From an uncultured Lachnospiraceae bacterium (GTDB taxonomy: Bacteria > Bacillota > Clostridia > Lachnospirales > Lachnospiraceae), in contig CAZPZR010000001.1 of NCBI GenBank assembly GCA_964591105.1, forward strand, positions 4,903-68,902: a stretch of 64,000 nucleotides of DNA. The letters are read 5' to 3'. Positions 3,360 to 50,554 of this stretch are shown here, piece by piece; the stretch's first letter is position 1, and every line of letters starts with the position of its first letter. The notes beneath the pieces were generated by a model. The model did not search any database, was not told the DNA's origin, and saw only the letters and a list, made by a program, of their open reading frames with translations. The position numbers and the translations under genes were made by a program.

Positions 3360-3387
3360 TTGATATTTTCAGAGTGTGTGCTATAAT
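3360..3387 (+). promoter_or_regulatory. Sigma-70-type promoter with extended -10
   Basis: -35 ttgata (3360-3365), 16-nt spacer ending in tgc, then -10 tataat (3382-3387). Confidence 0.55.
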
Positions 3388-3400
3388 ATAGTTCGCTATC

Positions 3401-3445
3401 AAACAATTCGAAATCGAACAATTCGAGATTGAACAATTATGAGAG
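3401..3445 (+). promoter_or_regulatory. Three 15-bp direct repeats, candidate MarR operator
   Basis: aaacaattcgaaatc / gaacaattcgagatt / gaacaattatgagag lie head to tail between the promoter and the MarR start codon. Confidence 0.5.
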
Positions 3446-3460
3446 TAGGTATTTTGCAAG

Positions 3461-5654: not shown

Positions 5655-5657
5655 GAG

Positions 5658-7565: not shown

Positions 7566-7572
7566 GCCAATG

Positions 7573-7618
7573 AAAGCGTCAAAGCGATGGACATTTGTCC
7601 TGAGCTTTGACGCTTTTA
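7573..7618 (+). terminator. Rho-independent terminator
   Basis: 13-bp stem aaagcgtcaaagc (7573-7585) pairs with gctttgacgcttt (7604-7616), followed by a T-run. Confidence 0.7.
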
Positions 7619-7748
7619 CTTCTAAATACTTATAAGAAAGAATTATAAACTGTAAGAAGAAAAACTCTATACATGATGAAAAAACTGGTATATAGTTAAT
7701 AATGGTAAAAAATGAGTTGACGGAAACAAAACGAACTGAGGGCGAAAT

Positions 7749-8516: not shown

Positions 8517-8518
8517 GG

Positions 8519-8995
8519 ATGATCGTAACAATTGAGTTAAATGGAAAGAAAATTATCGAAGATGTAAAGGCAGATCAGACGTTGTATCAGTTTGTAAGAG
8601 ATCATGGATGCTACAGTGTGAAGTGTGGATGTGAGACAACAAACTGCGGATTGTGTACTGTTTTCTTAGATGAAAAGCCAGTGTTATCCTGTTCTGTTTT
8701 GACAGCACGAGCAGATGGGAAAAAAGTAGATACATTGGAAGGACTTCAGAAAGAAGCAGAAGAATTTGGAACATTTATTGCAAATCAGGGAGCTGAACAG
8801 TGTGGATTCTGTAATCCGGGAATGATCATGAATGCAATTGCACTGTTCCGTGAAATAGAAGATCCATCGGACGAAGAGATTAAGAAATATTTGGCAGGAA
8901 ATTTGTGCCGCTGTTCTGGATACGAAGGACAGATGCGAGGAATTAAAGACTTTATAGAATATAAGAAGCAGGGAGGAGCAGCATGGGCGAAGTAG
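8519..8995 (+). CDS. Xanthine dehydrogenase family, (2Fe-2S)-binding small subunit
   Basis: Cysteine motifs CGCETTNCGLCTV and CGFCNPGMIM...CRCSGY. Confidence 0.9.
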   Translation: MIVTIELNGKKIIEDVKADQTLYQFVRDHGCYSVKCGCETTNCGLCTVFLDEKPVLSCSVLTARADGKKVDTLEGLQKEAEEFGTFIANQGAEQCGFCNPGMIMNAIALFREIEDPSDEEIKKYLAGNLCRCSGYEGQMRGIKDFIEYKKQGGAAWAK

Positions 8996-11265
8996 GACAG
9001 GCAATAAGAAAAAAAGATGCAATAGCGTTAGTGACTGGTAAACCGGTGTATCTGGATGATGTAGCACCACAGGATTGTCTCGTTGTAAAGGTACTTCGAA
9101 GCCCTCATGCCAATGCGATCATTGAGAACATTGACTGCACGAATGCTTTGAAAGTGCCAGGGATTGAAGTAATCTATACATGGAAAGATGTACCAAAGAA
9201 TCGATTTGCACAGGCAGGTCAGACTTACCCAGAGTGGAGTCCTTATGACCGTTTGATCCTGGATCAGCATGTTCGTTTTGTTGGAGATGCTGTAGCAATC
9301 ATTGCAGGGGAAGACGAAGCTTGTGTTGACCTTGCAATGAAGCGAATCAAAGTCACTTATCAGGTGCTTCCAGCGGTGTTGGATTATCATCAGGCAAAAG
9401 ACAATGAAATCTTGGTGCATCCGGAAGAGAACTGGGAATCTAGATTTCCAGTAGGAGCAGACAATAAGAGAAATCTCTGTGCACATATGGAAGATACTAA
9501 GGGAGAAGTAGAGCAGGTATTTGAAGACTGTGATCTTACGATTGAACGAACATTCCATACACCAGCGGCTAATCAGGCGATGATGGAGACATTCCGAACT
9601 GCCTGTCATATTGATACATATGGGCGACTGGTTGTATTGAGTTCAACACAGATTGTGTTCCACATTCGTCGAATTCTTTCTCATGCACTTGGAATCCCAA
9701 AATCTAAGATTCGTTCTATGAAACCACGTATTGGTGGTGGATTCGGTGCAAAGCAGACGGTTGTGGCAGAGATTTACCCAGCATTTGTTACATGGATGAC
9801 AAAGAAACCATCCAAATTATTATATTCTCGCGAAGAATGTCAGATTGCTGGTTCTCCACGCCATGAAATGGATGTTACAGTGAAGATTGGTGCGAATAAA
9901 GATGGAAAAATTCGTGCGATTGAAGTATATAACTTATCCAATACGGGAGCCTATGGCGATCACGGACCAACAACGGCTGGTCTGACTGGACATAAGTCCA
10001 TCCCATTGTACACAGCGAATTTGGAAGCTTATCGTCATACCTTTGACGTAGTATATACCAATATCTGTGCGGCAGGAGCATACCGCGGATATGGGGCAAC
10101 TCAGGGAATCTATGCGTTGGAAACAACGGTAAATGAACTGGCAGAAACCTTGAAGATGGATCCAGTAGAACTTCGTATGAAGAACATGGTGCGTGAAGGA
10201 ATGACAATGATTTCATACGATAATGAATTGGCAGCAGGATGTAAACTGGATGAATGTATGATGCGAACTGCAGAGATGATCGGATGGAAAGACAAGTTCC
10301 CTTGCAAGGATCTTGGAAATGGAAAAGTGCGTTCTGTCGGAATTGCGATGGCAATGCAGGGATCTTGTATTTCTCATGTAGACGTAGGTTCTGCAACAAT
10401 CATGCTGAACGAAGATGGAAGTTATAAGTTATCCATTGCAGCAGCAGATATGGGAACTGGATGCGACACCATTCTTGCACAGATGGCAGCAGATTGCCTG
10501 AATGTGACAACAGATGAAATCTTTGTCTCAGGCGCGGATACAGATTCTTCTCCTTATGATTCTGGATCTTACGCATCAAGTACAACCTATATTACCGGTC
10601 AGGCAGTTGTACGTGCATGCACAGAGTTAGAAAAGAGAATCCGCACAGTTGCAGCGAAAATGGTGGATTGCGAGCTGGATGATCTGGAATACGATGGACA
10701 GACAGCGAAAAATATTGTGACAGGAAAGTCTGTGACATTGGAAGAAATTGGATATCAGGCACAGTGCTTCAATGATGTGGCGTTGCAGGTGACTGAAAGT
10801 TATTCTTCTCCAGTGTCTCCACCGCCATATATGGCAGGTGCCGTAGAGATTGAATTGGATAAAGAAACTGGACATGTGGAAATCATCGATTACGCAGCAG
10901 TTGTAGACTGTGGAACGGTTGTGAATCCAAACCTTGCCAGAGTGCAGGTAGAAGGTGGTCTTGGACAGGGAATTGGAATGACCTTATTTGAAAACATCCA
11001 GTATTCTCCAAAGGGACAGCTATACAATAATTCTCTGATGCAGTATAAGATTCCAACAAGAATGGATTATGGAAAATTACGTGTAGAATTTAGATCCAGC
11101 TATGAACCAACAGGACCATTTGGAGTAAAATCCATCGGTGAGATTGTAATCAATACTCCAGCACCAGCGATTACCCATGCAATTTATAATGCGACAGGTC
11201 ACTGGTTTAGAGAACTTCCAATTACAAGTGAACAGATTGCGATGGCCATTGCGGGAGATAAATAA
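8983..11265 (+). CDS. Xanthine dehydrogenase family, molybdopterin-binding large subunit
   Basis: 760-aa ORF with aldehyde oxidase/xanthine dehydrogenase a/b-hammerhead and Mo-binding domains (GGGFGAK, AYRGYG, GEI...PA). Confidence 0.9.
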   Translation: MGEVGQAIRKKDAIALVTGKPVYLDDVAPQDCLVVKVLRSPHANAIIENIDCTNALKVPGIEVIYTWKDVPKNRFAQAGQTYPEWSPYDRLILDQHVRFVGDAVAIIAGEDEACVDLAMKRIKVTYQVLPAVLDYHQAKDNEILVHPEENWESRFPVGADNKRNLCAHMEDTKGEVEQVFEDCDLTIERTFHTPAANQAMMETFRTACHIDTYGRLVVLSSTQIVFHIRRILSHALGIPKSKIRSMKPRIGGGFGAKQTVVAEIYPAFVTWMTKKPSKLLYSREECQIAGSPRHEMDVTVKIGANKDGKIRAIEVYNLSNTGAYGDHGPTTAGLTGHKSIPLYTANLEAYRHTFDVVYTNICAAGAYRGYGATQGIYALETTVNELAETLKMDPVELRMKNMVREGMTMISYDNELAAGCKLDECMMRTAEMIGWKDKFPCKDLGNGKVRSVGIAMAMQGSCISHVDVGSATIMLNEDGSYKLSIAAADMGTGCDTILAQMAADCLNVTTDEIFVSGADTDSSPYDSGSYASSTTYITGQAVVRACTELEKRIRTVAAKMVDCELDDLEYDGQTAKNIVTGKSVTLEEIGYQAQCFNDVALQVTESYSSPVSPPPYMAGAVEIELDKETGHVEIIDYAAVVDCGTVVNPNLARVQVEGGLGQGIGMTLFENIQYSPKGQLYNNSLMQYKIPTRMDYGKLRVEFRSSYEPTGPFGVKSIGEIVINTPAPAITHAIYNATGHWFRELPITSEQIAMAIAGDK

Positions 11266-12012
11266 ATGATTTTAAACTGTAAAAATGGGAAATGGGAAGA
11301 ACAAAGCAGCTTATTCGAAGCTCTGGGCTTACATAAAGAGCAGCAGGAAGTTCTTTCGTTCACAGGCGGAGGCGGTAAGACGACGCTCATCCGCAGATTA
11401 CAAAAAGAGTTGAAGGCACGGGAAATTATGCACGGTGTTTCAACGACAACCCATATGCAGTATGAATGTGAAGAAAGCTTTCTGGGGGAATCATCGCTGG
11501 AAAGCTTTCTTAAGGTTTACAGACATACGAGGACTGTATGGATGGGGGAACCCATTTCCAAGGAGAAAATACAAGGATTTTCCAGAGAATTCTATCAGCA
11601 ACTGATAAAAATGGGCGCGTGGTTGCTTTTAGAAGCAGATGGTGCAAAGCATCTCCCAGTGAAGGCTCCAGAGGCAAAGGAGCCAGTAATTCTGCCGGAG
11701 AGCACAAGGGTGTGTAATGTCTATGGCCTGGATGGGGTAGGAAAACCTATTCGGGAAGGATGCTTTCGCGTAGAACGAGTGATGGAAATTCTTGGAAAAG
11801 AAGAACATGATTTGCTGGAAGAAACGGACATTGTCCGACTTGCAGCAAGTATATCTGGAGGAAGAAAACTAGTAGGAGAACGTCCCTATCATGTGATATT
11901 AAATAAAGCAGATACGGTCGGGCAGCGGGAAATGGCAGAACGCATCGGAATGCGTATCCTCGCCCTTGGTATCGGCGAAGTACATATCACAGCGGGACTG
12001 TGTGAAGAATAA
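11266..12012 (+). CDS. yqeC: Selenium-dependent hydroxylase accessory protein YqeC
   Basis: 248-aa ORF with P-loop FTGGGGKTT. Its position directly after the Mo subunit (TAAATG overlap) and before yqeB fits the family. Confidence 0.7.
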   Translation: MILNCKNGKWEEQSSLFEALGLHKEQQEVLSFTGGGGKTTLIRRLQKELKAREIMHGVSTTTHMQYECEESFLGESSLESFLKVYRHTRTVWMGEPISKEKIQGFSREFYQQLIKMGAWLLLEADGAKHLPVKAPEAKEPVILPESTRVCNVYGLDGVGKPIREGCFRVERVMEILGKEEHDLLEETDIVRLAASISGGRKLVGERPYHVILNKADTVGQREMAERIGMRILALGIGEVHITAGLCEE

Positions 12013-38125: not shown

Positions 38126-38162
38126 AACGGGGTTTTTGCAAAAAAACCCCGTTGCCTTTTTT
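38126..38162. terminator. Bidirectional terminator
   Basis: Stem aacggggttttt (38126-38137) pairs with aaaaaccccgtt (38142-38153), flanked by T/A runs. It serves the ligase gene (+) and the split SBP gene (-). Confidence 0.75.
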
Positions 38163-38734
38163 AATTTTCAATTGCTTTTTCAGCGAAAGAAGTATCTACT
38201 AAATCAGCGTATGGTGCGCGTTCGCTGAGTTCACCGGATTCTTCCAAGATATCTTGGAGCAGTTCAAAGCTTTCCTGCTGGAAAATAAGATCCGCTTTCC
38301 AAGTGTTTTGTTCGTAGTAACGTGCAACAATTGTGGTGATAGTATCTAAATCCGTTTCTTTAAATTGTGGGGCAATCAGTGATGCAATTTCTTCTGGAGT
38401 GTGAGTTTGCACATAGTCCATGCCTTTTTGGAGCGCATTGGTGAAGCCCTGAATGATGTCTGGATGCTGCTTGATATAACTTTGTTTGGCAGAAAATGCA
38501 GTATAAGGAACATAGCCGCTTTCTTCGCCAAGAGAAGCAACAACATATCCCCTGCCTTCCTTTTCTAATGCCGTAGCATGTGGTTCAAATTCAACGGTGA
38601 AATCTCCATTTCCTTCGGAAAATGCAGCTGCAGTTGAACCAAAATCAATACTTTGATTAATGGTCATGTCTTTCTGTGGATCCAGATGATGCTCTTTCAA
38701 AATGTATTCAAATACCATCTGAGGCATACCACCT
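38161..38734 (-). pseudogene. 3' part of a split NMT1/THI5-like ABC substrate-binding lipoprotein gene (C-terminal 189 codons)
   Basis: GMPQMVFEYILKEHHLDP...FEPHATALEKEGRGYVVASLGEESGYVPYTAF is NMT1-like. It has no N-terminus of its own; the missing part lies at 50095-50554. Confidence 0.85.
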
Positions 38735-38759
38735 GTCGTTCCCAGCATGATGTAAATGT

Positions 38760-40361
38760 CTACGGGGGATCCGCGAGATTAAGGTGAAAATCTATACCAT
38801 CAGGCAAGCTGTATTTGAAATGAATTTCTGGGGATCCGTATGCATCTACTTCAATCCGTTCAATTAAGATTTCGATATCTTTTCGGTCAAGCACACCGTT
38901 TTCAATAATCTTATCCATTACCTGTAAAGCATTATGAAGTTTTTCTTTTTTATTTTCATTCTTTGAATGGATTTCGTTTAATTCCTGAAGCTTTAATTCA
39001 AAATCATGAATCTGCGAAATGATATCCTGCTGCAGGGCATCGTAGATTTCATTTACAAGATTTTCGTTTCTGTGAGCATTGGACAAGTCTCTGACTTTCT
39101 GAGTAAAGAGAATTTTCAACTGTACTTTTCGTTCTCCCAACTGTTTTTGAATCTCTAAACGTTTTTCGTCTACTGTTTTTTCCTCAGAATCAAAATCCTT
39201 CATATCATAAGCCTCAATGATTTCACAAAGAGAATTTCGACAGAGTTTCAGGTAGGTTATCACATCTTTCATTAGATTATTTTCTTCGATAAGATGGGAT
39301 TTTTCACAATAGCGTTTACCTTTGGTGTTGTATGTGGTACAGATATAATATTTTCGCTCTCTGGCAGTGGTCGTTCGTTTGATTGGGGTTAAACGCTTTC
39401 CGCAATCTTTGCAAAAAAGACAGTTTCCAAAAGGATTCTGCATGTTGGGCAACTGCCTGCGACTGCCACGATAATTATTTTTTACGCGCTTTTCCTTTAT
39501 ATCCTGTATCAAATCAAAAGTGGCTTTATCAATGATGGCAGGGTGATGATTTTCGAAAATATACTGTTCTTCTTTGGGAATACGTTTGTCTTTGCCGTGA
39601 ACCGTAGAACGGGCACGTTTTCGTAATCGAAGGATGCCGATGTAAAAATCATTATTTAGTAGCTCTTTGACCATAGAATCTGACCAGACAGTGGCAACTG
39701 CACGTTTGCTGATTTTCCCTTCTACAAGTTCACGCTTGTGGCGAACCATAGAAGGAGTTGGCACTTTGTGTTTCGTCAAATAATTGGAAATCTTGCGATA
39801 GCCGAAGCCCTTTAGATAAAGGTCGTAAATCATGTGTATGACGGAAGCCTCTTCCGGTATGATTTCCATCGTTGTTTCGTCTTTGTCGTTCCTTTTATAT
39901 CCAAATGGTGGTTGAGTCACCAGGATTCCATCTTTTTGTCTAGCTTCAATCGCACTTTTGATTTTGTGGCTGATATCTTTGACATATTTTTCGTTATACC
40001 AGGTTAAGATGCCAATTGTATCATCGTCATCAGATTCTGAATGATAGTTGGTATCAATGATAACCAGTTCTTTTTGGCGTTCTTTGAAATCTTCCAAAAG
40101 AAGGAGGACGCGAGCGTTATGACGTCCGATACGAGACAGGTCTTTGACAAACACGCGCTCAATATGATCCAAATCCTCCAGTAATCTGTTTAATCCGGGG
40201 CGATTGAAGCTATAGCCGGAGACACCATCATCTTCATACCAACTGTCAATTACGACGTTGTATTCAGCCGCAAATTGACGAATGATTCGTTTTTGATTTT
40301 CAATAGAGACATAATTACGTTTGTCATCATCTCTGGATAGACGTACATACCCAACATTCAT
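38760..40361 (-). CDS. Large serine recombinase (resolvase + recombinase + zinc-ribbon domains, DUF4368-like C-terminus; TnpX-like)
   Basis: Catalytic motif VGYVRLSRDD. Zinc ribbon CLFCKDCG...YYICTTY...CE. C-terminal coiled coil plus IERIEV. Confidence 0.9.
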   Translation of the reverse strand: MNVGYVRLSRDDDKRNYVSIENQKRIIRQFAAEYNVVIDSWYEDDGVSGYSFNRPGLNRLLEDLDHIERVFVKDLSRIGRHNARVLLLLEDFKERQKELVIIDTNYHSESDDDDTIGILTWYNEKYVKDISHKIKSAIEARQKDGILVTQPPFGYKRNDKDETTMEIIPEEASVIHMIYDLYLKGFGYRKISNYLTKHKVPTPSMVRHKRELVEGKISKRAVATVWSDSMVKELLNNDFYIGILRLRKRARSTVHGKDKRIPKEEQYIFENHHPAIIDKATFDLIQDIKEKRVKNNYRGSRRQLPNMQNPFGNCLFCKDCGKRLTPIKRTTTARERKYYICTTYNTKGKRYCEKSHLIEENNLMKDVITYLKLCRNSLCEIIEAYDMKDFDSEEKTVDEKRLEIQKQLGERKVQLKILFTQKVRDLSNAHRNENLVNEIYDALQQDIISQIHDFELKLQELNEIHSKNENKKEKLHNALQVMDKIIENGVLDRKDIEILIERIEVDAYGSPEIHFKYSLPDGIDFHLNLADPP

Positions 40362-40625
40362 AAAGACAATTCCTTGTAGTGATTTTTAATGATTGCCTTT
40401 AATCCGTCGTGAATATTTTCATCTTTCTTCCCATCCAGATAAGTGACAACTCGAAAGCCATGTTTTCTATATTGTTCTTTTGCTGTTTCGAATTCTTCCT
40501 GTGATGAAAAATTATTTCTCCAAAGATAATAGGTTGGTTTGCTCAAATGTGATTTCATCCTCCTCGTCTGATAAGCGGAAGCAGTCTTGCTTCCAGTTTA
40601 TGCAATTTTGCTCTGGGTGTTGCAA
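40348..40625. repeat. Repeat R1, copy a (278 bp): recombinase 5' end, 66-aa ORF and its upstream region
   Basis: Matches 43271-43548 at offset 2923, with about 5 mismatches by eye, all outside the small ORF. Confidence 0.9.
40358..40558 (-). CDS. Hypothetical 66-aa protein translationally coupled to the recombinase (candidate accessory/directionality factor)
   Basis: Its stop overlaps the recombinase ATG (ATGA). An identical copy lies at 43281-43481. The AGGAGG abuts the ATG, so the start is not certain. Confidence 0.55.
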   Translation of the reverse strand: MKSHLSKPTYYLWRNNFSSQEEFETAKEQYRKHGFRVVTYLDGKKDENIHDGLKAIIKNHYKELSL

Positions 40626-40737
40626 GTTCCAGTTGCAGTTTTATCGACTGAACTGAGATTACGGTTTTATTAATGTCAAGGATCGAGAGTGTTTGCTCTT
40701 TTATTGGATAGTATATACAAAAAATCATAGCAAAAAG

Positions 40738-40936
40738 ATGGCTAATTTTAACACAGGCTTTGGCTGTAAATAGTTTTCCGTTTGAAATCAAAAGAGCACG
40801 TACCATTCCATATGAAGCTTTATCTGGAACAGAATTATGGGATAAGTTAGAAAAATCTAGTCAGAACGCAGCATAGGCGAAATATCGTGATGCTTCAGAG
40901 GCTTCTCGTGATATGAGGGAAAAATATGGATTATAG
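40738..40936 (+). pseudogene. Possible RelB/DinJ-family antitoxin remnant
   Basis: MANFNTGFGCK then a stop, a shift to FPFEIKRARTIPYEALSGTELWDKLEKSSQNAA, an in-frame TAG, then AKYRDASEASRDMREKYGL. The (I)PFE and IP..E.L pattern resembles a DinJ C-terminus. Confidence 0.35.
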
Positions 40937-41204
40937 GATTACGAAAACAAAATGTGTTAGTTTATCTGCCATACATTCATCAGAAAATACAGGATAGTCA
41001 AAACTAACATACAATTTGTTTGCGTGATTTAAATTGACACATAAGTCAGTGTTATTGGAGGGGGGGAGTGACATTACCAAATGTTATGCAATAATTAACT
41101 GAAAATATAGACAAGGAAATTCAGAAGTGTTAAAATCTTGTTAAATACAAAGATACAATTGAATTGTATAAGGACGTTAGAGTGTGAAGCAAAGGAGGAT
41201 GAAT

Positions 41205-42941
41205 ATGAATAGGAAACGTGGGAAATCTATAGCAAGTTTATTACTTGTTTTCGCCTTAGTGGTGACATTGTGTCCGGTGGTGGCTCCAGTACCGGTAGAG
41301 GCGGCATCTGGGAATGATTTTGTTGTGAAAGCAATTTCCGATGCAGAAAATGGAGCCGCAATTGATTATGCTTGTACGGATCAGACATTGTATATTACTG
41401 ACGCTGGTTTGGAAAGTATGGCAGAATATTCCGATGATTTTATGACGGGATATCTGGAAGGAGAGGAACCGCAGGTTCAGTGGTTTAGAGAAAAAGGCGG
41501 AAATGCAACAGAAATTGCGGGAGCAACTGGAAGAGTCTATAATAAAGTGTCATTAGCGGATGACTCTGGAGCAAAACTTTATGCAAAAGTAACTTACGGT
41601 GGAGACTCTATCAAGACAGCTAAAGTTCAAGTAGTTAGTGACTCAGAGAGGCTAGAGTTGACTTCTGGAAAGCCAGTAAGAGTACATTTCACTAGCAAAG
41701 GTTATAATTCTCAACAGAATCATTATTGGAAGATTAATATTCCTGTAAATTCAAAAGTTACTGTGAAATTGGATGCTGATTACACAGGAACTTTTGAACC
41801 TTATGTAACAGGTAGATTAGCTGGATCTAGTGGTTATGCTGCTTTTCGTGCTTCTGCGAACGAGAGCGACACTTGTTTTATAGAAAAGGGTGGAGACTAT
41901 TATGTTGATTTCGATGGTAGATCAAATGCTGAAGGTACTTATACATTGACAATCACAGTCGCCCCGATTAACTGGGGAACAGTAACCATCTCAGGATTAG
42001 ATAATTTAGTAGCAGGTACTTATGAAAATACAAAATTCAAAATCAAGTTAACTGGTGCAGATAGTGAAGTTAATCTTGATCGTTGGAGTTCAAATAATGA
42101 TTATAGTACTAATAACTACGATAGTAATCTTTCAGGAAAGAGTGCAACCGGTTATCTCACCACAAGCAGTACAGATGCCGGACACTATAAGTTGGAAGTA
42201 AGGCTGGATAATGAACTAACTTCAGATTTGACGAAAACAGTTATCTTTGATCTGGTTGTCAAACCGAAGAAGATTACAAATTATGATTTGTCAGATCTGG
42301 AAGTAGGATATAACAGTGTGAAATTTACACTTCCATTTGGTGATGGTGCAGGAACTTATGGATCAAAGATTCAGATTCAGAGATACAAATCCGGCAAATG
42401 GACAACTGTAAAAACGGTGAAAGATGGAACCAAGAGTACAACATTGACAGGTTTGAGTTCCAATACATCATATAAATATCGTTTGGTAGGATATGTACCT
42501 GCAAGCAATGGAAAGAAGTCTATTTCTGGTGCACCTTCCAAGACTTTATCCGTCAAGACAGGATACAGCAGCAAGCCACAGGTAAAATCTATCAAGTGTT
42601 ATGATGCAAAACAAAAATATGTTAAGAGAGTGTACCACCCAGGACATTGGACCACAACTGGTAAATGGCAGAACGGATATTATACTGGTGGTTACTATGT
42701 GACAAACTTCAAAGTCAAAGTAACATTGAAGAAAAAGATGACAGGACAGAAAGGTCTTATAATCTATAACGAACTGCTCGATTCAAAGAAAGTTTCAGGA
42801 ACAGGTACGACCTTTACAACAACAATGTCTGTTGATGGAAAAAAGAAAGGCAAAACAATTTCTTTGAAAATAAAAGGATACCGTAATGGTTCTTATCTTG
42901 GATACTCAAAATACACAACCAAGAAAGTAAAAATTAAATAA
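41205..42941 (+). CDS. Secreted protein with a fibronectin type III-like domain and a possible pre-peptidase C-terminal-like (PPC-like) domain
   Basis: Signal peptide ending VEA/AS. A segment around GTYTLTITV may be PPC-like. An FN3-like module follows (SGKWTTVKTVKDGTKSTTLTGLSSNTSYKYRLVGY). Start ATG 41205 lies 6 nt after aaaggagg. Confidence 0.65.
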   Translation: MNRKRGKSIASLLLVFALVVTLCPVVAPVPVEAASGNDFVVKAISDAENGAAIDYACTDQTLYITDAGLESMAEYSDDFMTGYLEGEEPQVQWFREKGGNATEIAGATGRVYNKVSLADDSGAKLYAKVTYGGDSIKTAKVQVVSDSERLELTSGKPVRVHFTSKGYNSQQNHYWKINIPVNSKVTVKLDADYTGTFEPYVTGRLAGSSGYAAFRASANESDTCFIEKGGDYYVDFDGRSNAEGTYTLTITVAPINWGTVTISGLDNLVAGTYENTKFKIKLTGADSEVNLDRWSSNNDYSTNNYDSNLSGKSATGYLTTSSTDAGHYKLEVRLDNELTSDLTKTVIFDLVVKPKKITNYDLSDLEVGYNSVKFTLPFGDGAGTYGSKIQIQRYKSGKWTTVKTVKDGTKSTTLTGLSSNTSYKYRLVGYVPASNGKKSISGAPSKTLSVKTGYSSKPQVKSIKCYDAKQKYVKRVYHPGHWTTTGKWQNGYYTGGYYVTNFKVKVTLKKKMTGQKGLIIYNELLDSKKVSGTGTTFTTTMSVDGKKKGKTISLKIKGYRNGSYLGYSKYTTKKVKIK

Positions 42942-42958
42942 GAAACCTTAAGTAAATG

Positions 42959-43008
42959 AAAACATCCTCTCATGGAGAAATATCTTCTTCTGAGAGGATG
43001 TTTTTTTG
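42959..43008 (+). terminator. Rho-independent terminator
   Basis: 12-bp stem aacatcctctca (42961-42972) pairs with tgagaggatgtt (42991-43002), followed by ttttt. Confidence 0.75.
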
Positions 43009-43270
43009 TGTTGAATAATTCCGAAAAATATTGCATTGTTAATTTTCACAATTTCTATGTTTGCATAGTGGAAAAATTATTTTACTGGGGATATGCACAT
43101 TGAACATAGTATTGTGGGAATTTTATTATCAAGAGTAGCAAAGAAGACAGTGAGAATGAAAAAGAAGGAAAACGAAAGAGTATGAGGGAGGAACTATGAA
43201 AAAAATGAGTTTTTTGTGTGCATTAAGTATTTCAACAGCGATTCTGTGTGGAATCTGGTCTTACCTGGCT
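43003..43270. repeat. Repeat R2, copy a (268 bp): promoter/leader and first 25 codons of the DUF1097 gene
   Basis: Matches 44861-45128 at offset 1858 with 6 mismatches by eye. Five lie in the first ~50 nt and one is a synonymous change in codon 8. Confidence 0.9.
43196..43270 (+). pseudogene. Truncated 5' fragment (25 codons) of a DUF1097 gene, fused to repeat R1b
   Basis: MKKMSFLCALSISTAILCGIWSYLA is identical to the start of the 45054 gene. The reading frame then runs into antisense R1 sequence and stops after 13 codons. Confidence 0.85.
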
Positions 43271-43548
43271 TACCCAACGTTCATAAAGACAATTCCTTGT
43301 AGTGATTTTTAATGATTGCCTTTAATCCGTCGTGAATATTTTCATCTTTCTTCCCATCCAGATAAGTGACAACTCGAAAGCCATGTTTTCTATATTGTTC
43401 TTTTGCTGTTTCGAATTCTTCCTGTGATGAAAAATTATTTCTCCAAAGATAATAGGTTGGTTTGCTCAAATGTGATTTCATCCTCCTCGCTTGATAAGCG
43501 GAAGCAGTCTTGCTTCCAGTTTATGCAATTTTGCGCTGGGTGTTGCAA
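43271..43548. repeat. Repeat R1, copy b (278 bp), recombinase-less
   Basis: It begins with tacccaacgttcat, which is the first 13 nt of a recombinase gene on the minus strand (MNVG then a stop), and continues through the 66-aa ORF and its upstream hairpin. Confidence 0.9.
43281..43481 (-). CDS. Hypothetical 66-aa protein, second identical copy
   Basis: 201/201 nt identical to 40358-40558. Confidence 0.5.
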   Translation of the reverse strand: MKSHLSKPTYYLWRNNFSSQEEFETAKEQYRKHGFRVVTYLDGKKDENIHDGLKAIIKNHYKELSL

Positions 43549-43635
43549 ACGATAGGAGATTTCAATAATAAATTTCAGATTCCTTCCTTGCAGACCAGCA
43601 CACACACTTGAGAAATTTTTTTATCATGATTAGTT

Positions 43636-44133
43636 TTATCGGTCCCACTCATATGCGAGCTTTGGACCTCCATCAAAAGTAATCAGCCCGCAATATTCAA
43701 ACCCTTCTCGGACAAGAATATGCTGCATTACTTTGTTTTCGTCTTGCGTGTCAACACGAATTGCTTCAATCGCATTCTCAATACAGAAATTCTTTATCAA
43801 TGTAATTGCCTTCTTGGACAATCCCTTCCCTCTAGCATTCTGAGAAAAGGCCATTCTATGTACGACGGCATAGGGACGATTTGTTTTCCACTCGCCGTCA
43901 ATAACACGATAAGCTGGTTCATCTCCAATGATAATGCAGCAGTATCCGTAAATTTTATTTTCTTCTTCAAATACATAACCAATACTCGCTTTAATATCGT
44001 CTTCAATCGTAGCAAGTGTTGGGTACCCCGGGTGCCATTGTACAAATCCCATAGAGTTGTGATATGCTCTCGCGTCTTCGATACATTGATAAGATATTTT
44101 TGCTTCATTCATTTGTGCTTTTCTTAATAACAT
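43636..44133 (-). CDS. GNAT family N-acetyltransferase
   Basis: Acetyl-CoA binding segment VHRMAFSQNARGKGLSKKAI. The start was moved to ATG 44133, which follows aggag. Confidence 0.8.
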   Translation of the reverse strand: MLLRKAQMNEAKISYQCIEDARAYHNSMGFVQWHPGYPTLATIEDDIKASIGYVFEEENKIYGYCCIIIGDEPAYRVIDGEWKTNRPYAVVHRMAFSQNARGKGLSKKAITLIKNFCIENAIEAIRVDTQDENKVMQHILVREGFEYCGLITFDGGPKLAYEWDR

Positions 44134-44175
44134 GGTTTTTCTCCTATAAAAAATTTTCGCGATAAACAAAAGATA

Positions 44176-44258
44176 TTGACCTTAGTTTATTTATTCGATA
44201 TAGTGAAAAAAATTCGATATATCGTATTTCTCTTATATTATACTAATAGTCCGATATA
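44176..44258. promoter_or_regulatory. Divergent promoter region with three (T)CGATATA boxes
   Basis: -35 ttgacc (44176-44181), 17-nt spacer, -10 tatagt (44199-44204). Boxes: attcgatata at 44193-44202 and 44212-44221, and tccgatata at 44250-44258. It includes the perfect palindrome cgatatatcg (44215-44224). Confidence 0.5.
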
Positions 44259-44277
44259 TTATCAATGAGGAGAGCAC

Positions 44278-44829
44278 ATGGATATTCAAAAAAATGTAGG
44301 GAAAAACATTAAAACAATTAGAGAGCAAAAGAAAATCACGTTAGACTCAGCGTCAAAACTAACCGGAGTCTCTCGAAGTATGCTTGCGCAAATTGAAAAA
44401 GGAGAAGTAAATCCTACCATTTCCATTCTCTGGAAAATTGCAAACGGATATAAGGTGTCGTTTACTTCACTTGTTAAATACGATACGCCTTCTCTTTTGA
44501 TAAAATCAGAAGAAGTACGCCCATTTATTGAAAGTGATGAAAAATATATTAATTATCCCGCTTTTCCATTTCAAGAAGATAAACAGTTTGAAACATATCG
44601 CATTGAAATAAAAGAAGGTGGATATTTGCAGGCTCAACCTCATTTAGACGGAGCCGAAGAATATATTACTGTTTTTGATGGAGAAGTTGAGATAATAGCT
44701 GATTCGGAAACATTTCGGATAAAAAAAGGCGATTCATTATGTTTTAAGGCGGATGTAGCCCATTCATATAAAAACACAGGAGAAACAACAGCATATTTAA
44801 GCATGATTATTTATTATTCAAATAAATAG
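44278..44829 (+). CDS. XRE-family HTH regulator with C-terminal cupin domain
   Basis: HTH motif LDSASKLTGVSRSMLAQIEKGEVNPTISILWKIA. Cupin motifs: first PHLDGAEEYITVFDGEV, then FKADVAHSYKN. Confidence 0.85.
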   Translation: MDIQKNVGKNIKTIREQKKITLDSASKLTGVSRSMLAQIEKGEVNPTISILWKIANGYKVSFTSLVKYDTPSLLIKSEEVRPFIESDEKYINYPAFPFQEDKQFETYRIEIKEGGYLQAQPHLDGAEEYITVFDGEVEIIADSETFRIKKGDSLCFKADVAHSYKNTGETTAYLSMIIYYSNK

Positions 44830-44860
44830 GATGGAAAGTATGATTCAAGTTCGAGCAGAT

Positions 44861-45128
44861 TTTTTGTATTGAATAATTTCGAAAAATAGTGTATTGTTAA
44901 TTTTTACAATTTCTATGTTTGCATAGTGGAAAAATTATTTTACTGGGGATATGCACATTGAACATAGTATTGTGGGAATTTTATTATCAAGAGTAGCAAA
45001 GAAGACAGTGAGAATGAAAAAGAAGGAAAACGAAAGAGTATGAGGGAGGAACTATGAAAAAAATGAGTTTTTTGTGCGCATTAAGTATTTCAACAGCGAT
45101 TCTGTGTGGAATCTGGTCTTACCTGGCT
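44861..45128. repeat. Repeat R2, copy b (268 bp), continuous with the intact DUF1097 gene
   Basis: See copy a. Confidence 0.9.
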
Positions 45129-45524
45129 GGGATGGTTGGATTAATCGGTTGGGCTGGATTTGCCGGATGTACAACATATTTTGCATGCGGAAAGCATGGG
45201 GCAGAAGGTGTTAAGAAGACGATTATTCCAAATCTGACAGGAGTAATTTGTGGAATGGTGATTATTACATTAAGCAATATTGTCCCAGAATTAGGAGATC
45301 TTGGAATATGGTGTGCGATTATTACGTTTGTAATGTGCATCATAGCAAAATGCGAGTGGTTTGATTTTTGTCCAGGAACATTCATGGGATGCTTTACAAC
45401 ATTTGCAGCTGGCGGTGATTGGAAATTGTTATCGGTGTCACTGGTCATCGGTGCATTTTTAGGTCTTGGATGTGACTACGGCGGGGAATGGTTACATAAG
45501 ATTGTGACAGGAAAAAAATCATAA
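45054..45524 (+). CDS. Small polytopic membrane protein, DUF1097-like
   Basis: 156-aa ORF with 4-5 TM helices and the motif GWAGFAGCTTYFACG. The family assignment is from memory. Confidence 0.55.
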   Translation: MKKMSFLCALSISTAILCGIWSYLAGMVGLIGWAGFAGCTTYFACGKHGAEGVKKTIIPNLTGVICGMVIITLSNIVPELGDLGIWCAIITFVMCIIAKCEWFDFCPGTFMGCFTTFAAGGDWKLLSVSLVIGAFLGLGCDYGGEWLHKIVTGKKS

Positions 45525-45625
45525 AAAATATAACAAAAATGGAGATAAAGGTTGAATGACCATCCCCTAATGGTGTACTGTAAAAAAGAAGTTGATTTTA
45601 AAGTAGCTATACTAAGGGGGAAAAC

Positions 45626-47893
45626 ATGAGAAACAAAAGATTAAAAATGATGGCTTGGATTTTGGCTGTTGCTATGTTTATGACAGCGATTCCAGGTGGA
45701 GTTGTCTATGCGGAAGAATCTACGGCGACATCTGAGGTGAGTACGGAGGCGCAGGAAGAGATTCTGGAAGTGCAGGAGGAAATTCCGGCAGCATTGAATT
45801 ATTTGTATATCAATGAAGCAGAGCAGGAAGCAGGAGCGGAACAGAATATCGTTGTTTCCTGGGGCGATGGAACGGAAGAAATCCGTGACATTAAGCTGGA
45901 ATTGGAGAATGCTAAGGGAGAAAAACAGTCAATTAGTTCCATTTATGACGTAGACGGAGTTTTTCTTTTTAGTGATTTCTTTGAAAAAGGAGTATATCAT
46001 GTTACTAATCTTACGATTGTAACTAAGACAGCGGAAAAAACATTTTCTATGGATGAAGTAGGTGTTAATGCTTACTTTTCAGTTGGAAAAGAGTGTTCAG
46101 ATGAAAAGAAGAGTGAACATTTAGAAATGGAGAGTATAGCAACCGATGAAATCGAGACGCAAGTGGTAACAATTGATGATGAGGGTGTTGCGACAGCGCA
46201 GGACAGTATTGCAGACGCATTGGAAGAAATTAGTTCCGGTGAAGTATCTTCTCGCAGTACATCACGAGCAGTGTCAAAGGAAAAGGTAGTGGCACTGGAT
46301 CCGGGACATGACAGTAAACATGTAGGTGCTAGAGGAAATGATGTAAAGGAAGAGGTTGCGACTTTAAAAATTGCGAAATATTGCAAGGCAGAACTGGAAA
46401 CTTATGATGGTGTTACGGTGCTTATGACGCGCGACAATGCAGCATGTCCATTTCCAACATCGACAAGTAATTTAGATGATATTCGTAAACGAGTGCAATG
46501 GGCGGTAGAAAAAGGAGCAAATATATTTGTAAGTATACATTTGAATTCAGCAACTGCAACTTCAGCGAAAGGGGCAGAAGTATATTACGCAGCATCTAAC
46601 AAAAATGGAAAAGATTTGGCGCAGAAGATTCAGAATGAGTTGGTGAAAATTGGCTTATATGACAGAGGAATCAAAAGTGGTGATGTGTACACAGTGATCG
46701 ATGCTTCAAAGAAAAATGGAATTCCTGGTATCATTGTGGAACATGCATTTTTATCGAATAAGTCAGATGCAGACAAATATTTGAAAAAAGAGTCAGGCTT
46801 GAAAAAACTGGGAGTTGCAGATGCAACTGGAATTGCGACATATCTCAAACTTAAAAAGAAAAGTGCTGTGCCAATTACGGAACTGGATACGCCAGTTTTA
46901 AAATCTATCGTTCAAGACGAAGGTGCGGTTACTGTGAACTGGGGAAAAGTAACAAATGCAAGCGGTTATTATATTTATCGTAAACAGGGAGAAGAGCCTT
47001 GGGCGCAGATTGCGAAAGTTACTTCAGGAAAAACGACTTCTTACACAGATAAAACAGTTCCAGAAGGTGAGATTTACAGTTACACAGTGAAGGCATATCA
47101 TGAATCTGTGTACAGCAATTATGATGAAAATGGATTGTCGATTTTTGCATTGGATCAGCCAGTAGTTACTTCGGCAGTATATGATGGAACTTCAATTACT
47201 GTACAATGGAAATCTGTTGAAAATGCGAAAAAGTACTACATCTATCGAAAAACAAACGATGGAAAATGGTCTTGCATTGGAAATGTGGATCAGGAAACAT
47301 TTTTATATAAAGATAGTACAATGGCTGCAGGAAATCGATATTCGTATACTGTTCGAGCATTTAGCGAATCTAATTACAGCAGCTGTTGTGAAGGGAAAGA
47401 AGTAATCAGCTTCACAAAACCAAAACTTGTTTCAGCAAAATACGAGGCAGGTCAGGTGACTGTGAAATGGAAGAAAGTGACTGGTGCAGAAGGGTATCGT
47501 GTATATCGTAAGGAAGAAGGCGGAAGCTGGAAACGAATTGGCAAAGTAGCATCTGGTTCAAAAGTTACATATGCAGATAATAAAATTGAAGCTAGAAAAA
47601 AATATGTGTATATGGTACGTGCATATAAAGGCGATTGTGTGAGTGGATACGAAAAAGAAGGAGTTTCAGTTACAACACCAAAAAAACTTTATATCACATA
47701 TAAGACAAAAACCAATTTGAATTATCGTACGGGTCCGGGAAAATCTTATAAAATTGCAGGTATGCTAAAAAAGAATAAAAAGGTTCAGGTAGTATCAGGA
47801 TATTCCAAGAAAGCAAATGGAATGACTTGGTACAAAATCAAGATAAATTCAAAGTTCTACTATGTATCTTCAAAATATTTAAAAAAAGTGTAA
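45626..47893 (+). CDS. Secreted N-acetylmuramoyl-L-alanine amidase with three FN3-like repeats and a C-terminal SH3b domain
   Basis: Signal peptide. Amidase_3 core (LDPGHDSKHVGA...FVSIHLNS...GAEVYY...VEHAFLSN). Three ~85-aa repeats, each with a W.KV..A.GY.(I/V)YRK pattern. SH3b tail (YRTGPGKSYKIAG...WYKI). Confidence 0.85.
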   Translation: MRNKRLKMMAWILAVAMFMTAIPGGVVYAEESTATSEVSTEAQEEILEVQEEIPAALNYLYINEAEQEAGAEQNIVVSWGDGTEEIRDIKLELENAKGEKQSISSIYDVDGVFLFSDFFEKGVYHVTNLTIVTKTAEKTFSMDEVGVNAYFSVGKECSDEKKSEHLEMESIATDEIETQVVTIDDEGVATAQDSIADALEEISSGEVSSRSTSRAVSKEKVVALDPGHDSKHVGARGNDVKEEVATLKIAKYCKAELETYDGVTVLMTRDNAACPFPTSTSNLDDIRKRVQWAVEKGANIFVSIHLNSATATSAKGAEVYYAASNKNGKDLAQKIQNELVKIGLYDRGIKSGDVYTVIDASKKNGIPGIIVEHAFLSNKSDADKYLKKESGLKKLGVADATGIATYLKLKKKSAVPITELDTPVLKSIVQDEGAVTVNWGKVTNASGYYIYRKQGEEPWAQIAKVTSGKTTSYTDKTVPEGEIYSYTVKAYHESVYSNYDENGLSIFALDQPVVTSAVYDGTSITVQWKSVENAKKYYIYRKTNDGKWSCIGNVDQETFLYKDSTMAAGNRYSYTVRAFSESNYSSCCEGKEVISFTKPKLVSAKYEAGQVTVKWKKVTGAEGYRVYRKEEGGSWKRIGKVASGSKVTYADNKIEARKKYVYMVRAYKGDCVSGYEKEGVSVTTPKKLYITYKTKTNLNYRTGPGKSYKIAGMLKKNKKVQVVSGYSKKANGMTWYKIKINSKFYYVSSKYLKKV

Positions 47894-47977
47894 CAGAAAC
47901 GTAGGAACAAAAGGGAGAATACCAGTAAAAAATATTAGTAATAGACAAATTTGTAAAAAAACAGAAGAATAGATGCT

Positions 47978-48010
47978 AAGAAAGTCGGGAATTCAACTCC
48001 CGACTTTCTT
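47978..48010. terminator. Bidirectional terminator
   Basis: 13-bp stem aagaaagtcggga (47978-47990) pairs with tcccgactttctt (47998-48010). Confidence 0.75.
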
Positions 48011-48017
48011 GATATTG

Positions 48018-48473
48018 TTACATAATTTTATTTAAAATACATCTTGATACAAAAAGGCATACAGCAAAGGTTGCGAGAATGACCAATATAGTTTTCATTA
48101 CAATTACATTCAGTGCACCAGTAATTAGGAGTGCAATGTAGAGGATAAGAAACATTGCATACCCTGCGTATGACCAACATTTAAGGCCAATCATGCGATT
48201 TCTTTCATCAAATTCGTAAATTTCACGATTCTTTAAAGCTTCTTCATTTTTAAGCAATCGAATATTCCGAATGATTGTGATAATGCTTGCGGCAATGAGC
48301 GAACATCCAGTTCCTACATAAAATCCAGAAGAATATGCAGTATTGCCGGAAGCAAGTGGTATAAATGTTCCAACATAAAGTGAAGCACTTCCTAAAATGA
48401 CAAGCACTACACAATAAATAATACGAAATTTGATTTTCTGTTTAATACTTTTTCTTGAATTATTTGGTAACAT
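48018..48473 (-). CDS. Small membrane protein (about 4 TM helices) co-transcribed with the XRE regulator
   Basis: 151 aa counted from MLPNNSRKS (internal ATG at 48473). The longer tracked ORF overlaps the XRE gene out of frame. Confidence 0.5.
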
Positions 48474-48675
48474 GTGATTCCTCCTCGTCGAATAAAAATA
48501 TTTCTTCAATGGACTTCCCAAAATAAACAGCAATCGTGTGTGCAAGCATAAGTGATGCGTTGTATTTTCCGTTTTCCAATGAAATGATTGTTTGTCTTGT
48601 GACATTAACTGCATTTGCAAGTTCTTCCTGAGAAATGCGGTGTTCTTTTCGTAATTCTTTAATTAGATTCTTCAC
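48460..48675 (-). CDS. XRE family HTH transcriptional regulator (71 aa)
   Basis: [39 protein letters not shown] is a Cro/C1-type HTH. Confidence 0.85.
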
Positions 48676-48700
48676 GACTCACCTCCAAAATGTAAAATTA

Positions 48701-48761
48701 ACTTTACAATAAAAGTATAGTTTACTTTACAATAAATGTCAAGTTTATTTTACATTTATTG
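48701..48761. promoter_or_regulatory. Operator-like repeats upstream of the XRE gene
   Basis: actttacaataaa occurs twice (48701-48713 and 48724-48736). A perfect 10-bp inverted repeat, caataaatgt (48730-48739) and acatttattg (48752-48761), is also present. Confidence 0.45.
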
Positions 48762-48874
48762 CGAATGAATTGAAAGTCTATTATACTGAATACATGAGAG
48801 ATACCACGGGATATGTGTTTTGCGTGGGGGGAAGGAAGCAAGTGGGTTCCTGAGATGTAAGAAATTCCTCATAG

Positions 48875-49080
48875 AAATCCGCACCAATCCAAAAGAAAAA
48901 GAGTCCCATAGAACCCCACAAATCAAAAAATAAATTCAAAAAGATACTTATTGAGAGTGTTTATTTTCAGATGTCAGATAATGATATTGCAAAATTGCAT
49001 AATATGACTAAGGACAATGTGAGAAAAATTCGTTCTCGCGCAAAGCAAAAGCTGATTGAGAAAATGAAGGAGGAAACATA
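48875..49080 (+). pseudogene. 5'-truncated sigma-70/ECF-type sigma factor remnant (region 4 only)
   Basis: The open frame after TAG 48872-48874 reads ...KKILIESVYFQMSDNDIAKLHNMTKDNVRKIRSRAKQKLIEKM, a region 4.2 HTH. No region 2 is present. The stop lies 1 nt before the anti-sigma ATG. Confidence 0.5.
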
Positions 49081-49081
49081 G

Positions 49082-50068
49082 ATGAGTGAGTGGAATGAAA
49101 ATAAATTGGATCAAGAGCTAGAAGCGATTATGAACGATATCCCAGAATCCGACGATTTGGAAAAACGGGTGAATAAGTGTATTGACCGCAGAATCAAGAA
49201 GACAGTGGTTCGAACTGTAGGATCCATTTTGGTGATTGTGATAATTGCAATATTTATCATCAATCCAGTTATGAATATGGCATTTTTTAATCCTTATAAG
49301 ATGAATGATGGTGAGGAGCAGAAAATGCTTGGTGTCATGAGAGACTATGTAGAAACAGTTCTTCCATATCGAGAAGTTTCAAGCTTGGAAGTAGAGAAAC
49401 GAGGATTTGGAAGATATGAAATCTCTATGCAGTGGTTAGATTTGTCTCAATCTCAGGTGCAAATTGGTGAACCGAATGTATGGGTAGAGATGAACTGGGG
49501 AACATACGAATCTGTGAAGGATGCAGATTCCGCTATGACAATTAACGTCGGCAGATTCAACTGTACTTACGAGGATCAAAAGAAAATGATCAACCAAATC
49601 GAGGAACTTCCAAAGTCAGCGAGGCTATATTTGTCTATCGGTGATGCTCAGCCGAAATCAATTGAGCAATTAAGAAGTTTTCCAGTGACATTGCTCTGGA
49701 TGCAAGTCTATCAGCCGAAAGTAGAATTCCAGGGAGGATTATCCTACCAACCAATTTCCCTGTATAGTAACGATGATGATAGAGAGGAAATGTCAGGACA
49801 AGAGCTCTTGGAAGTATATTTTGAAAACTTGAAAAACATGATAGATCATCCAGAAGTATGGAAAGGAATTGGAGTTTTTAACAGTGGAGACGGCAAGATT
49901 TATACAGAACCGGAAACAGTTTTAAAGGAAACTTATGAAGATGCAATGAAATTAACGGAGCTGAAAAGCAAGAACTATTGTGTTGTTGGTAATCGAGATG
50001 AGATTCTTGAGTTTTTACGTGAAAATACTTGTGATTCCATCAGCGTAGAGAATGTTACACTCTGGTAA
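49082..50068 (+). CDS. Anti-sigma factor-like membrane protein (single TM, sigma-regulator N- and C-terminal domains)
   Basis: 328-aa ORF with a short cytoplasmic N-terminus, one TM helix (VGSILVIVIIAIFIINPV) and a large extracytoplasmic domain. It sits immediately after a sigma gene remnant. Confidence 0.55.
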   Translation: MSEWNENKLDQELEAIMNDIPESDDLEKRVNKCIDRRIKKTVVRTVGSILVIVIIAIFIINPVMNMAFFNPYKMNDGEEQKMLGVMRDYVETVLPYREVSSLEVEKRGFGRYEISMQWLDLSQSQVQIGEPNVWVEMNWGTYESVKDADSAMTINVGRFNCTYEDQKKMINQIEELPKSARLYLSIGDAQPKSIEQLRSFPVTLLWMQVYQPKVEFQGGLSYQPISLYSNDDDREEMSGQELLEVYFENLKNMIDHPEVWKGIGVFNSGDGKIYTEPETVLKETYEDAMKLTELKSKNYCVVGNRDEILEFLRENTCDSISVENVTLW

Positions 50069-50094
50069 GAAAATTTACATTGTTCGGTGGATGT

Positions 50095-50554
50095 CACCTT
50101 TTCGACCACCAAGGATATTTTTGCCTTTCAAATCTTCCCATTTGAAATCCGGCATTTTCTCGCGTGCGACAAGGAAATTTCCAGCACGTTGCGTCAGTTG
50201 TGCAAAATTAATGACAAAATCATTGGCGCCTTCGTTGTAAGTGTAGATGGAAGACTCAGAGCCCATAAAACCGATGTTGGCACTGTCGGAAAGAACAGCA
50301 GTCATTGTTTTGTCTGCACCGAAGCCGGTGACAAGAGTAAGGGCAATCCCTTCCTCTTCGAAATACCCATTTTCAATGGCGACGTACATTGGGGCATAGA
50401 AGATAGAATGTGCCACTTCATTTAATGTGACCGCAGTAAGAGCATCTTCGGATGTGTGAGAAACAGTGGCAGTTTCCTGCTTTGCGCTGCATCCACTCAG
50501 GATGGACAGGATCAGAAGCAGTACAAGAAATACAGAACAGATACGTTTTTTCAT
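50095..50554 (-). pseudogene. 5' part of the split NMT1/THI5-like substrate-binding lipoprotein gene (N-terminal 153 codons)
   Basis: Signal peptide with lipobox LSGC, then VTLNEVAHSIFYAPMYVAIENGYFEEEG...NILGGRKG. Six element-encoded codons and a stop follow (50075-50094). Confidence 0.85.

Follow-up and report, generated by a model that had tools for sequence, protein, structure and literature searches.

Homology-facilitated illegitimate recombination is documented for Escherichia coli conjugation and also for Acinetobacter, Streptococcus pneumoniae and Pseudomonas stutzeri (PMC3240628), and it has been proposed for gene arrays such as the orphan immunity-gene arrays of the Vibrio cholerae type VI secretion system (PMC5361080). 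Tandem accretion of integrative elements is known from streptococci, where integrative and conjugative elements (ICEs), integrative and mobilizable elements (IMEs) and cis-mobilizable elements (CIMEs) form arrays (PMC5704250, PMC5812530). The locus considered here lies in a stretch of 64,000 nucleotides (nt; hereafter the window, whose positions serve as coordinates throughout) of contig CAZPZR010000001.1 of assembly GCA_964591105.1, a metagenome bin of an uncultured Lachnospiraceae bacterium comprising 132 contigs and 89% complete. In this window, an 11.3-kb large-serine-recombinase island (38.75-50.07 kb) interrupts an NMT1-like gene and holds an array of two cargo segments, A and B, each lying between a copy of a repeat termed R1 and a copy of a repeat termed R2. 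Our analysis suggests that the array is probably a head-to-tail stack of two alleles of one cargo segment, formed through one illegitimate joint, with the rest resolved by homology. As in the homology-facilitated arrays, an incoming allele would have been added beside the resident one instead of replacing it, giving serial modules with repeated conserved stretches and with one homologous and one illegitimate end. On the other hand, the joint in the window shows no microhomology, the resident cargo is whole and both of its flanks are duplicated, and the donor, the way its DNA was taken up and the single-step character of the event are all inferred here. The array is an ordinary structural rearrangement that involves no new mechanism and no new cassette system. 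It nevertheless offers a clean natural case of two cargo alleles stacked by a single illegitimate joint and later resolvable via ~270-bp repeats, bears on the build-up and sorting of accessory genes in gut Lachnospiraceae, and marks a place at which metagenome assemblies and analyses at strain level will break or mis-phase.

R1 is 278 nt long (copy a, 40348-40625; copy b, 43271-43548) and covers the first 14 nt of the recombinase gene, a small open reading frame (ORF) and 67 nt upstream of it, whereas R2 is 269 nt long (copy a, 43002-43270; copy b, 44860-45128) and covers the promoter/leader and the first 25 codons of a DUF1097 gene, copy b running on into the intact gene. The R1 copies differ at 4 positions in 278 nt (40356, 40567, 40568 and 40612; 98.6% identity) and the R2 copies at 6 in 269 nt (43010, 43021, 43031, 43034, 43047 and 43219; 97.8% identity); for repeats of ~270 nt, agreement at 98-99% identity lies far beyond chance. 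Both repeats are present in only two copies in the whole assembly, with start-to-start spacings of 2923 bp (R1) and 1858 bp (R2), and cargo A and cargo B, which show no cross-match, are unrelated. A preliminary description of this DNA had reported the same repeats, spacings and unrelated intervening sequences, together with the gene order and the recombinase, GNAT, XRE-cupin and DUF1097 calls that Pfam confirms; realignment only moved the start of R2 by 1 nt, to 43002/44860. Its estimate of ~2% divergence also holds in magnitude (1.4% for R1 and 2.2% for R2), but the differences are concentrated at the cargo-proximal ends, five of the six in R2 falling within the first 46 nt and the sixth at 43219, and such clusters look like recombination tracts and not like a clock.

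The novel feature of the array is the R2a/R1b joint at 43270/43271, at which codon 25 of DUF1097 abuts the antisense of recombinase codons 1-4. In agreement with the earlier reading, this is a blunt, illegitimate joint: microhomology amounts to 0 nt, no base is common to both parents at the breakpoint and the parental sites are dissimilar. The joint lies within a hybrid ORF of 38 aa (43196-43312, plus strand), in which DUF1097 codons 1-25 are followed by the antisense of the recombinase start and of the end of the small ORF. No att-like sequence was found at the joint, nor any similarity to the attachment (att) regions of the island, and the junctions 40347/8, 43270/1 and 45128/9 have no core or dinucleotide in common, their best ungapped similarity (35-40%) being that of the background. 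Serine-recombinase action at pseudo-sites was rejected, as the parental sites have no crossover dinucleotide in common, and an insertion sequence (IS) or composite-transposon origin was rejected for want of a transposase domain in the region and of flanking inverted repeats. Because R1 and R2 would be parts of the backbone left on both sides of an illegitimate joint, they would not be recombination sites in their own right.

Single-cassette relatives provide the evidence that two alleles took part. A search for homologues of cargo A, followed by a context look-up, led to a 20-kb contig from a sister lineage (L043; ENA ERZ27271034), used here as the outgroup, which carries in order the NMT1 3' half, the recombinase gene (533 aa), R1, a 63-nt spacer, cargo A (88%), R2, DUF1097, an amidase, an isochorismatase, a helix-turn-helix (HTH) gene, a sigma factor, an anti-sigma factor and the NMT1 5' half, with backbone and flanks ~94% identical to those of the window. 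Two Logan contigs (L044 and L045) show the same order from recombinase through R1, cargo A and R2 to DUF1097, with cargo A-R2-DUF1097 unbranched, so that in all three relatives R1 and R2 co-occur on one element around a single cargo, as the preliminary description had anticipated. Compared with this ancestral A-type arrangement, the window contains 1858 extra bp. A short contig (L034; SRR19576298), in which the end of cargo B, R2b, DUF1097 and the amidase follow one another unbroken at 99.6% identity, indicates that a B-type single form is likely to exist as well. Relative to L043, synonymous divergence (dS) is 0.17-0.32 for the island genes and 0.21-0.23 for the flanking NMT1 halves; because the island falls in the same range as its flanks, these values point to an island that predates the split from the L043 lineage and has been inherited vertically.

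The repeat copies sort into two lineages when set against this outgroup. R1a has the L043 base at all four variable R1 sites and runs on into ancestral sequence that neither L043 nor R1b has, whereas R1b is derived at the four sites, one of which, 9 nt away from the joint, synonymously turns recombinase codon 2 from AAT into AAC. The inner boundary of R1b (after ...GCAAAC) is that of L043; three different sequences begin to differ no farther than 2 nt from the R1 inner end, and the breakpoint common to R1b and L043 can be explained by common descent. In R2, the 5' part of copy b has the L043 base at the five cargo-proximal sites and copy a is derived at all five, these derived sites adjoining a cargo A that is itself 12% diverged from that of L043; at 43219, R2a has the L043 base, and R2b and L034 have the other. 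This distribution supports the view that R1a with R2a and R1b with R2b derive from two diverged alleles of one island, which argues against plain duplication. Like an ordinary tandem duplication, the array has a single novel join between the end of one unit and the start of the next and would be collapsible by homologous recombination. However, its units differ from those of a tandem duplication in holding unrelated cargo between flanks from two diverged alleles, and for these reasons plain duplication is not sufficient.

Contigs from independent sequencing runs make it very likely that the array is real. Logan contigs are assembled from raw reads at k = 31 and end at graph branches, and hence offer an indirect test of the joint. 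Five of them (L036-L040, from SRR17221323, SRR17221326, SRR17221328, SRR17221333 and SRR17221344) all end exactly at 43270, and another (L050; SRR19576306; 12,795 nt; 99.99% identical) starts at 45099, that is, at 45129 minus 30; contigs from at least six runs thus break exactly at the outer end of R2. Breaks at the inner ends are also present: L035, L041 and L042 stop at 43077, 30 nt past the last mismatch of the R2a/R2b cluster (43047), and L035 starts at 40596, or 40626 minus 30. If single alleles of the A-type and the B-type were merely mixed, branches would be expected only at the inner ends of R1 and R2, so that the outer fork of R2 calls for a further path, namely the joint, and an assembler would have no cause to invent outer boundaries at which a single-allele mixture has no branch. 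An assembly artefact, with one cassette in the chromosome and the other a strain variant or small circle threaded into the contig, would fit the fragmented state of this metagenome bin of 132 contigs and the record of exact cargo B proteins from this genome alone, and an A-type chromosome accompanied by an R1-B-R2 circle would give the same de Bruijn graph as a tandem. It is nonetheless improbable, since with two single-cassette strains the outer ends of the repeats do not branch and give an assembler no reason to jump there, the breaks in at least six runs fall precisely at the outer end of R2, the joint is linked in the contig to the R2a-type base at 43219 as well as to the 5' variants of R2a, where a B circle would link R2b-type bases to it, and a 1.86-kb circle would have no replication gene. 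As a separate observation, four contigs (L036-L038 and L041) start at 40935 or 40939, the interval 40935-40940 being the end of the RelB-remnant homology (see below) and the start of cargo A proper. The five contigs that reach 43270 begin at this other fork near 40939, and contigs starting at 40935/40939 imply that some samples must hold cargo A with a different left neighbour.

With regard to its formation, allele E1 would have had the order recombinase-R1a-(backbone remnant)-cargo A-R2a-DUF1097 and allele E2 the order recombinase-R1b-cargo B-R2b-DUF1097. One blunt, non-homologous break-and-join would have connected E1, at DUF1097 codon 25, with E2, at recombinase codon 4/5, and everything to the right of the joint would have been resolved by ordinary homology. 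Three routes, each of which requires one illegitimate joint in addition to homology, could lead to this structure and are not separable from one another; we rank them as one-step capture, then whole elements in tandem followed by deletion, then duplication followed by a swap. In the first, imported E2 DNA would have been captured in a single step, its right end joining by homology and its left end illegitimately, either by homology-facilitated illegitimate recombination or by unequal exchange between the two alleles. Such a configuration is present, the right side being continuous homology at 98-100% (R2b, DUF1097 and onward) and the left side the blunt joint. Homology-facilitated illegitimate joints typically use 3-10 nt of microhomology. 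Several observations weigh against the reading of the array as two stacked alleles: the joint lacks the usual microhomology of this length (0 nt); the joint, searched as a sequence pattern, is absent from metagenome contigs, and the hybrid ORF is absent from the protein collection in which it was searched; this genome is the sole recorded source of the exact cargo B proteins; the cargo A contigs of five runs continue unbroken past the R2 5' merge point, which would be unexpected with cargo B-R2b at equal depth; and the R1 fork in SRR19576306 lies at 40625/6, though R1b of the genome already differs at 40612. Given these unexplained fork patterns and the cargo B proteins recorded only here, the second cassette may differ among samples.

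The route favoured in the preliminary description, in which an entire A-type element was followed on its right, in tandem, by an entire B-type one and a deletion of ~6.5 kb then joined DUF1097 codon 25 to recombinase codon 4/5, is a possible but unlikely alternative. A second functional recombinase allele would account for the synonymous difference in the recombinase-start fragment of R1b, other blunt deletions in this island likewise leave the first few codons of a gene (e.g. the isochorismatase at 47944/47955), a circular relative exists (L051), and the recombinase is still under purifying selection. This history requires two rare steps, however, with an intermediate whose kilobases of homology would collapse fast, and tandem elements occur in none of the 80 related loci with small ORF and recombinase that were compared. 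Serine integrases are not known to use attL or attR as integration targets, which counts against this history and means that entry in tandem would need homologous recombination with a circle; the tandem stage could indeed follow homologous integration of an excised circle, but genes for replication or transfer are missing from the present island, which appears to have been inherited vertically. The process would resemble ICE/IME/CIME accretion in that related elements with different cargo come to lie side by side and later deletions make composites. Accretion arrays, on the other hand, arise site-specifically and keep an att site between elements, whereas the boundary in the window is a blunt joint inside two genes, without an att-like site and with only 13 nt of a second recombinase gene. 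Of the earlier proposal, the two related elements with the same backbone and different cargo stand, in the form of two diverged alleles; the tandem and its deletion do not stand apart, as the two other routes fit equally well.

Somewhat less probable still is that an illegitimate sister-strand exchange first duplicated R1-A-R2 and that imported B-type DNA then replaced the second A by crossovers in R1 and in R2/DUF1097. The cargo A contigs of five runs cross R2a without an R2b-type merge and yet stop at 43270, as they would in an A-A tandem, and most R1b/R2b mismatches lie at the cargo-proximal ends, like donor tracts. Yet to account for the R1b difference at 43279 (9 nt from the joint), either a crossover would have to fall within 8 nt or a further mutation would be required, a perfect 2.9-kb tandem would be very unstable, and the fork near 40939 in the same five contigs is not explained by an A-A tandem. 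The least credible of the alternatives, and one that is nearly refuted, is a site-specific, integron-like cassette system in which R1-cargo-R2 units circularise, the R2/R1 joint being the circle junction, and a dedicated recombinase, for which the serine recombinase with the small ORF would be the candidate, inserts them serially. While, in formal terms, either unit would have the joint as its circle junction, a small-ORF copy accompanies each of them and three sequences diverge within 2 nt of the R1 inner end, the three junctions lack a common core or dinucleotide and lie inside two coding sequences, common descent accounts for the R1b/L043 breakpoint, no other array was found in the 80 related loci or in a wider scan of 500 Lachnospiraceae genomes, and R2 is confined to L043 among those loci.

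Several consequences would follow from the array. The small ORF would be present twice in identical form, its second copy no longer coupled to the recombinase. The DUF1097 promoter orphaned in R2a, where a promoter-like site with a weak consensus match lies at 43100-43129, would read the 38-aa hybrid ORF and then run antisense into small-ORF copy b. RecA-type recombination between the R1 copies would remove 2923 bp and leave a B-type allele, and between the R2 copies would remove 1858 bp and leave an A-type allele. It is very doubtful that the array is functional as such, which could take either of two forms. In one, the antisense RNA from the R2a promoter over small-ORF copy b, which would be 100% complementary to the small-ORF/recombinase leader in R1a, would silence excision in trans; in the other, hinted at by fork patterns that differ among runs, the units would be circularisable cassettes shuffled in the population. 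A riboswitch in R2 was also considered and is unsupported, because no Rfam family was found in the R2 leader; none was found elsewhere in the island.

Concerning the cargo, the left part of what had been taken for cargo A is not cargo, because 40626-40940 is a remnant of the ancestral backbone that is absent from L043. It comprises the region upstream of the small ORF (to 40667) and a RelB-antitoxin remnant (40746-40940); these two parts match L051 at 82-90% nt identity, and the corresponding segment there contains an intact RelB-ParE pair. Cargo A proper encodes a secreted protein of 585 aa (41184-42941, plus strand) without a Pfam match, which is 100% identical on 8 Logan contigs and has an 88% homologue in L043-L046. 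Cargo B consists of a GNAT acetyltransferase gene (43636-44133, minus strand; 165 aa from ATG; Pfam Acetyltransf_1) and a gene for a PuuR-like regulator with an XRE-type HTH and a cupin domain (44278-44829, plus strand; Pfam HTH_3 and Cupin_2; NCBIfam PuuR-like). The two together (43610/43629-44837) are found elsewhere at 85-87% nt identity, in L048 on a contig with a MobA/MobL relaxase and in L126 beside spo0A on a chromosome, and the GNAT part alone adjoins a TnpV gene in L127 and L128; cargo B thus appears to be a small module moving between contexts. The 90%-identity cluster of the GNAT protein has 39 members, and the 14 compared among the 15 members listed are each at least 11 differences away. 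Look-ups of the exact proteins (the 585-aa protein with its GTG start, the XRE-cupin regulator, the small-ORF product and the GNAT protein) returned none outside this genome. The suggestion that the interval between the small ORF and DUF1097 is the cargo-variable slot of the element family proved overstated, given this backbone remnant and the presence of R2/DUF1097 only in the nearest lineage, L043, among the 80 related loci. R2/DUF1097 was therefore rejected as a family backbone, being confined to this sub-lineage, and beyond the region upstream of the small ORF everything varies across the family.

A by-product of this work, and possibly a more useful one, is the family itself, which appears to be a widespread family of serine-recombinase elements with one insertion site in the NMT1 gene and a conserved small ORF. 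Besides its occurrence in the window (38730-50099), the small ORF with its recombinase gene lies beside the NMT1 3' half in G042 as well as three species genomes and 75 loci from metagenomes. Members (L025, L031-L033, L043 and L051-L125) are ~4-11 kb long and all inserted in the same NMT1-like gene of gut Clostridia, the 75 metagenome loci including many from human gut assemblies; their cargo varies, and the small ORF by the recombinase is always kept, lying next to it in ~60 related loci. In ~60 related loci the pair also adjoins the NMT1 3' half, and the junction motif is conserved. Copy a of the small ORF (40358-40558, minus strand; 66 aa as read) overlaps the recombinase start, copy b (43281-43481, minus strand) has no recombinase downstream any more, and the two are identical over 201/201 nt. 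In relatives, TGA comes right after the ATG used here (40546-40558), and a TTG four codons farther downstream is where the conserved protein begins (MSKPTYYLW...), for which reason the product is probably of 62 aa, from the TTG. It has no Pfam, PHROG or NCBIfam match, and its AlphaFold model (pLDDT 71) has no fold match in the PDB, the best being at E = 0.44. No second copy of the small ORF or of R1, and no tandem element, was found among the 80 related loci.

The nearest relative in the JGI data, L051 (Ga0129316_1001057, 1-11761), has a recombinase 83% and a small ORF 93% identical to those of the window. It is an 11.6-kb contig that is probably circular, because its ends overlap by 123 identical nt, and it carries, in addition to the RelB-ParE pair, a D5-type primase-helicase, an HD hydrolase and HTH regulators; it may represent a free or excised form of the element family. 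A stretch of ~150 nt upstream of the small ORF (GGGGAGGCTCGGCAC...CGTTCACCAAAG...; L051:5355-5500; also L052, L053, L055 and L025) is strongly conserved, with recombinases only 77-83% identical, and may have a regulatory role or form a structured RNA; the window keeps only its last ~40 nt (40626-40667). Eight loci (L073, L087, L090, L100, L108, L121, L122 and L125) have 1.4-3.2 kb inserted between the small ORF and the recombinase gene; an IS element and a group II intron are both possible identities of this insert. Among annotated plasmids, the sole match was 69 nt at 83% in a Fusobacterium record, and annotated phages gave no match.

The host island is flanked on the left by the 3' half of the NMT1-like substrate-binding protein gene (38161-38748, minus strand; Pfam NMT1_2/NMT1, C-terminal part of the profile), which is matched by many relatives, and on the right by the 5' half (50075-50554, minus strand), which matches the N-terminal half of the L007 protein (69% identity, E = 3e-56); in L007 the gene is unsplit (387 aa). 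The left junction (attL region, 38730-38760) holds the conserved motif ATGTAAAT, and in an alignment with four related elements the NMT1 sequence resumes right after the conserved ATTTACAT. The large serine recombinase (38760-40361, minus strand; 533 aa) has Resolvase, Recombinase and Zn_ribbon_recom domains (PF00239, PF07508 and PF13408), each above the Pfam cut-off. As with the fdxN element (XisF), the staphylococcal cassette chromosome (SCC; Ccr) and Tn4451 (TnpX), a resolvase/recombinase/zinc-ribbon enzyme thus sits at one end and the split gene is intact in relatives. However, R1 and R2 are unrelated to the att sites of the island, and the recombinase scores far below the curated cut-offs for XisF and CcrA/B and is therefore not a member of these families. 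Here and in L043 (533 aa in both) the recombinase lacks ~330 bp (~115 aa) of C-terminal tail that is present in all more distant relatives (649-674 aa; compare L025:13128-13494 with window 38760-38800) and contains no Pfam domain. A dead recombinase was considered and rejected, as dN/dS relative to L043 is 0.17 despite the missing tail, a value that denotes purifying selection; together with the circular relative L051, this bears indirectly on whether the island can excise and integrate.

To the right of the array follow the intact gene for a DUF1097 membrane protein (45054-45524, plus strand; Pfam DUF1097, E = 1.8e-36) and, in the right-hand backbone, a cell-wall amidase (45626-47893, plus strand; Amidase_3, repeats and SH3_3) with 94% nt identity to L043, whose exact protein is encoded on L050. 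Compared with L043:9227-10244, the window (47944-47955) has lost the isochorismatase gene and kept ~7 codons of it, and compared with L043:11120-12282, the window (48828-48942) has lost the region-2 part of the gene for an extracytoplasmic function (ECF)-type sigma factor, which is intact in L043 (160 aa), leaving its anti-sigma-like partner of 328 aa alone in the island. These losses would represent other illegitimate deletions in the same island. Just upstream of the sigma factor gene, L043 (11137-11797) also has a 328-nt tandem direct repeat with copies 93% identical, of which the window keeps one short copy (48832-48942).

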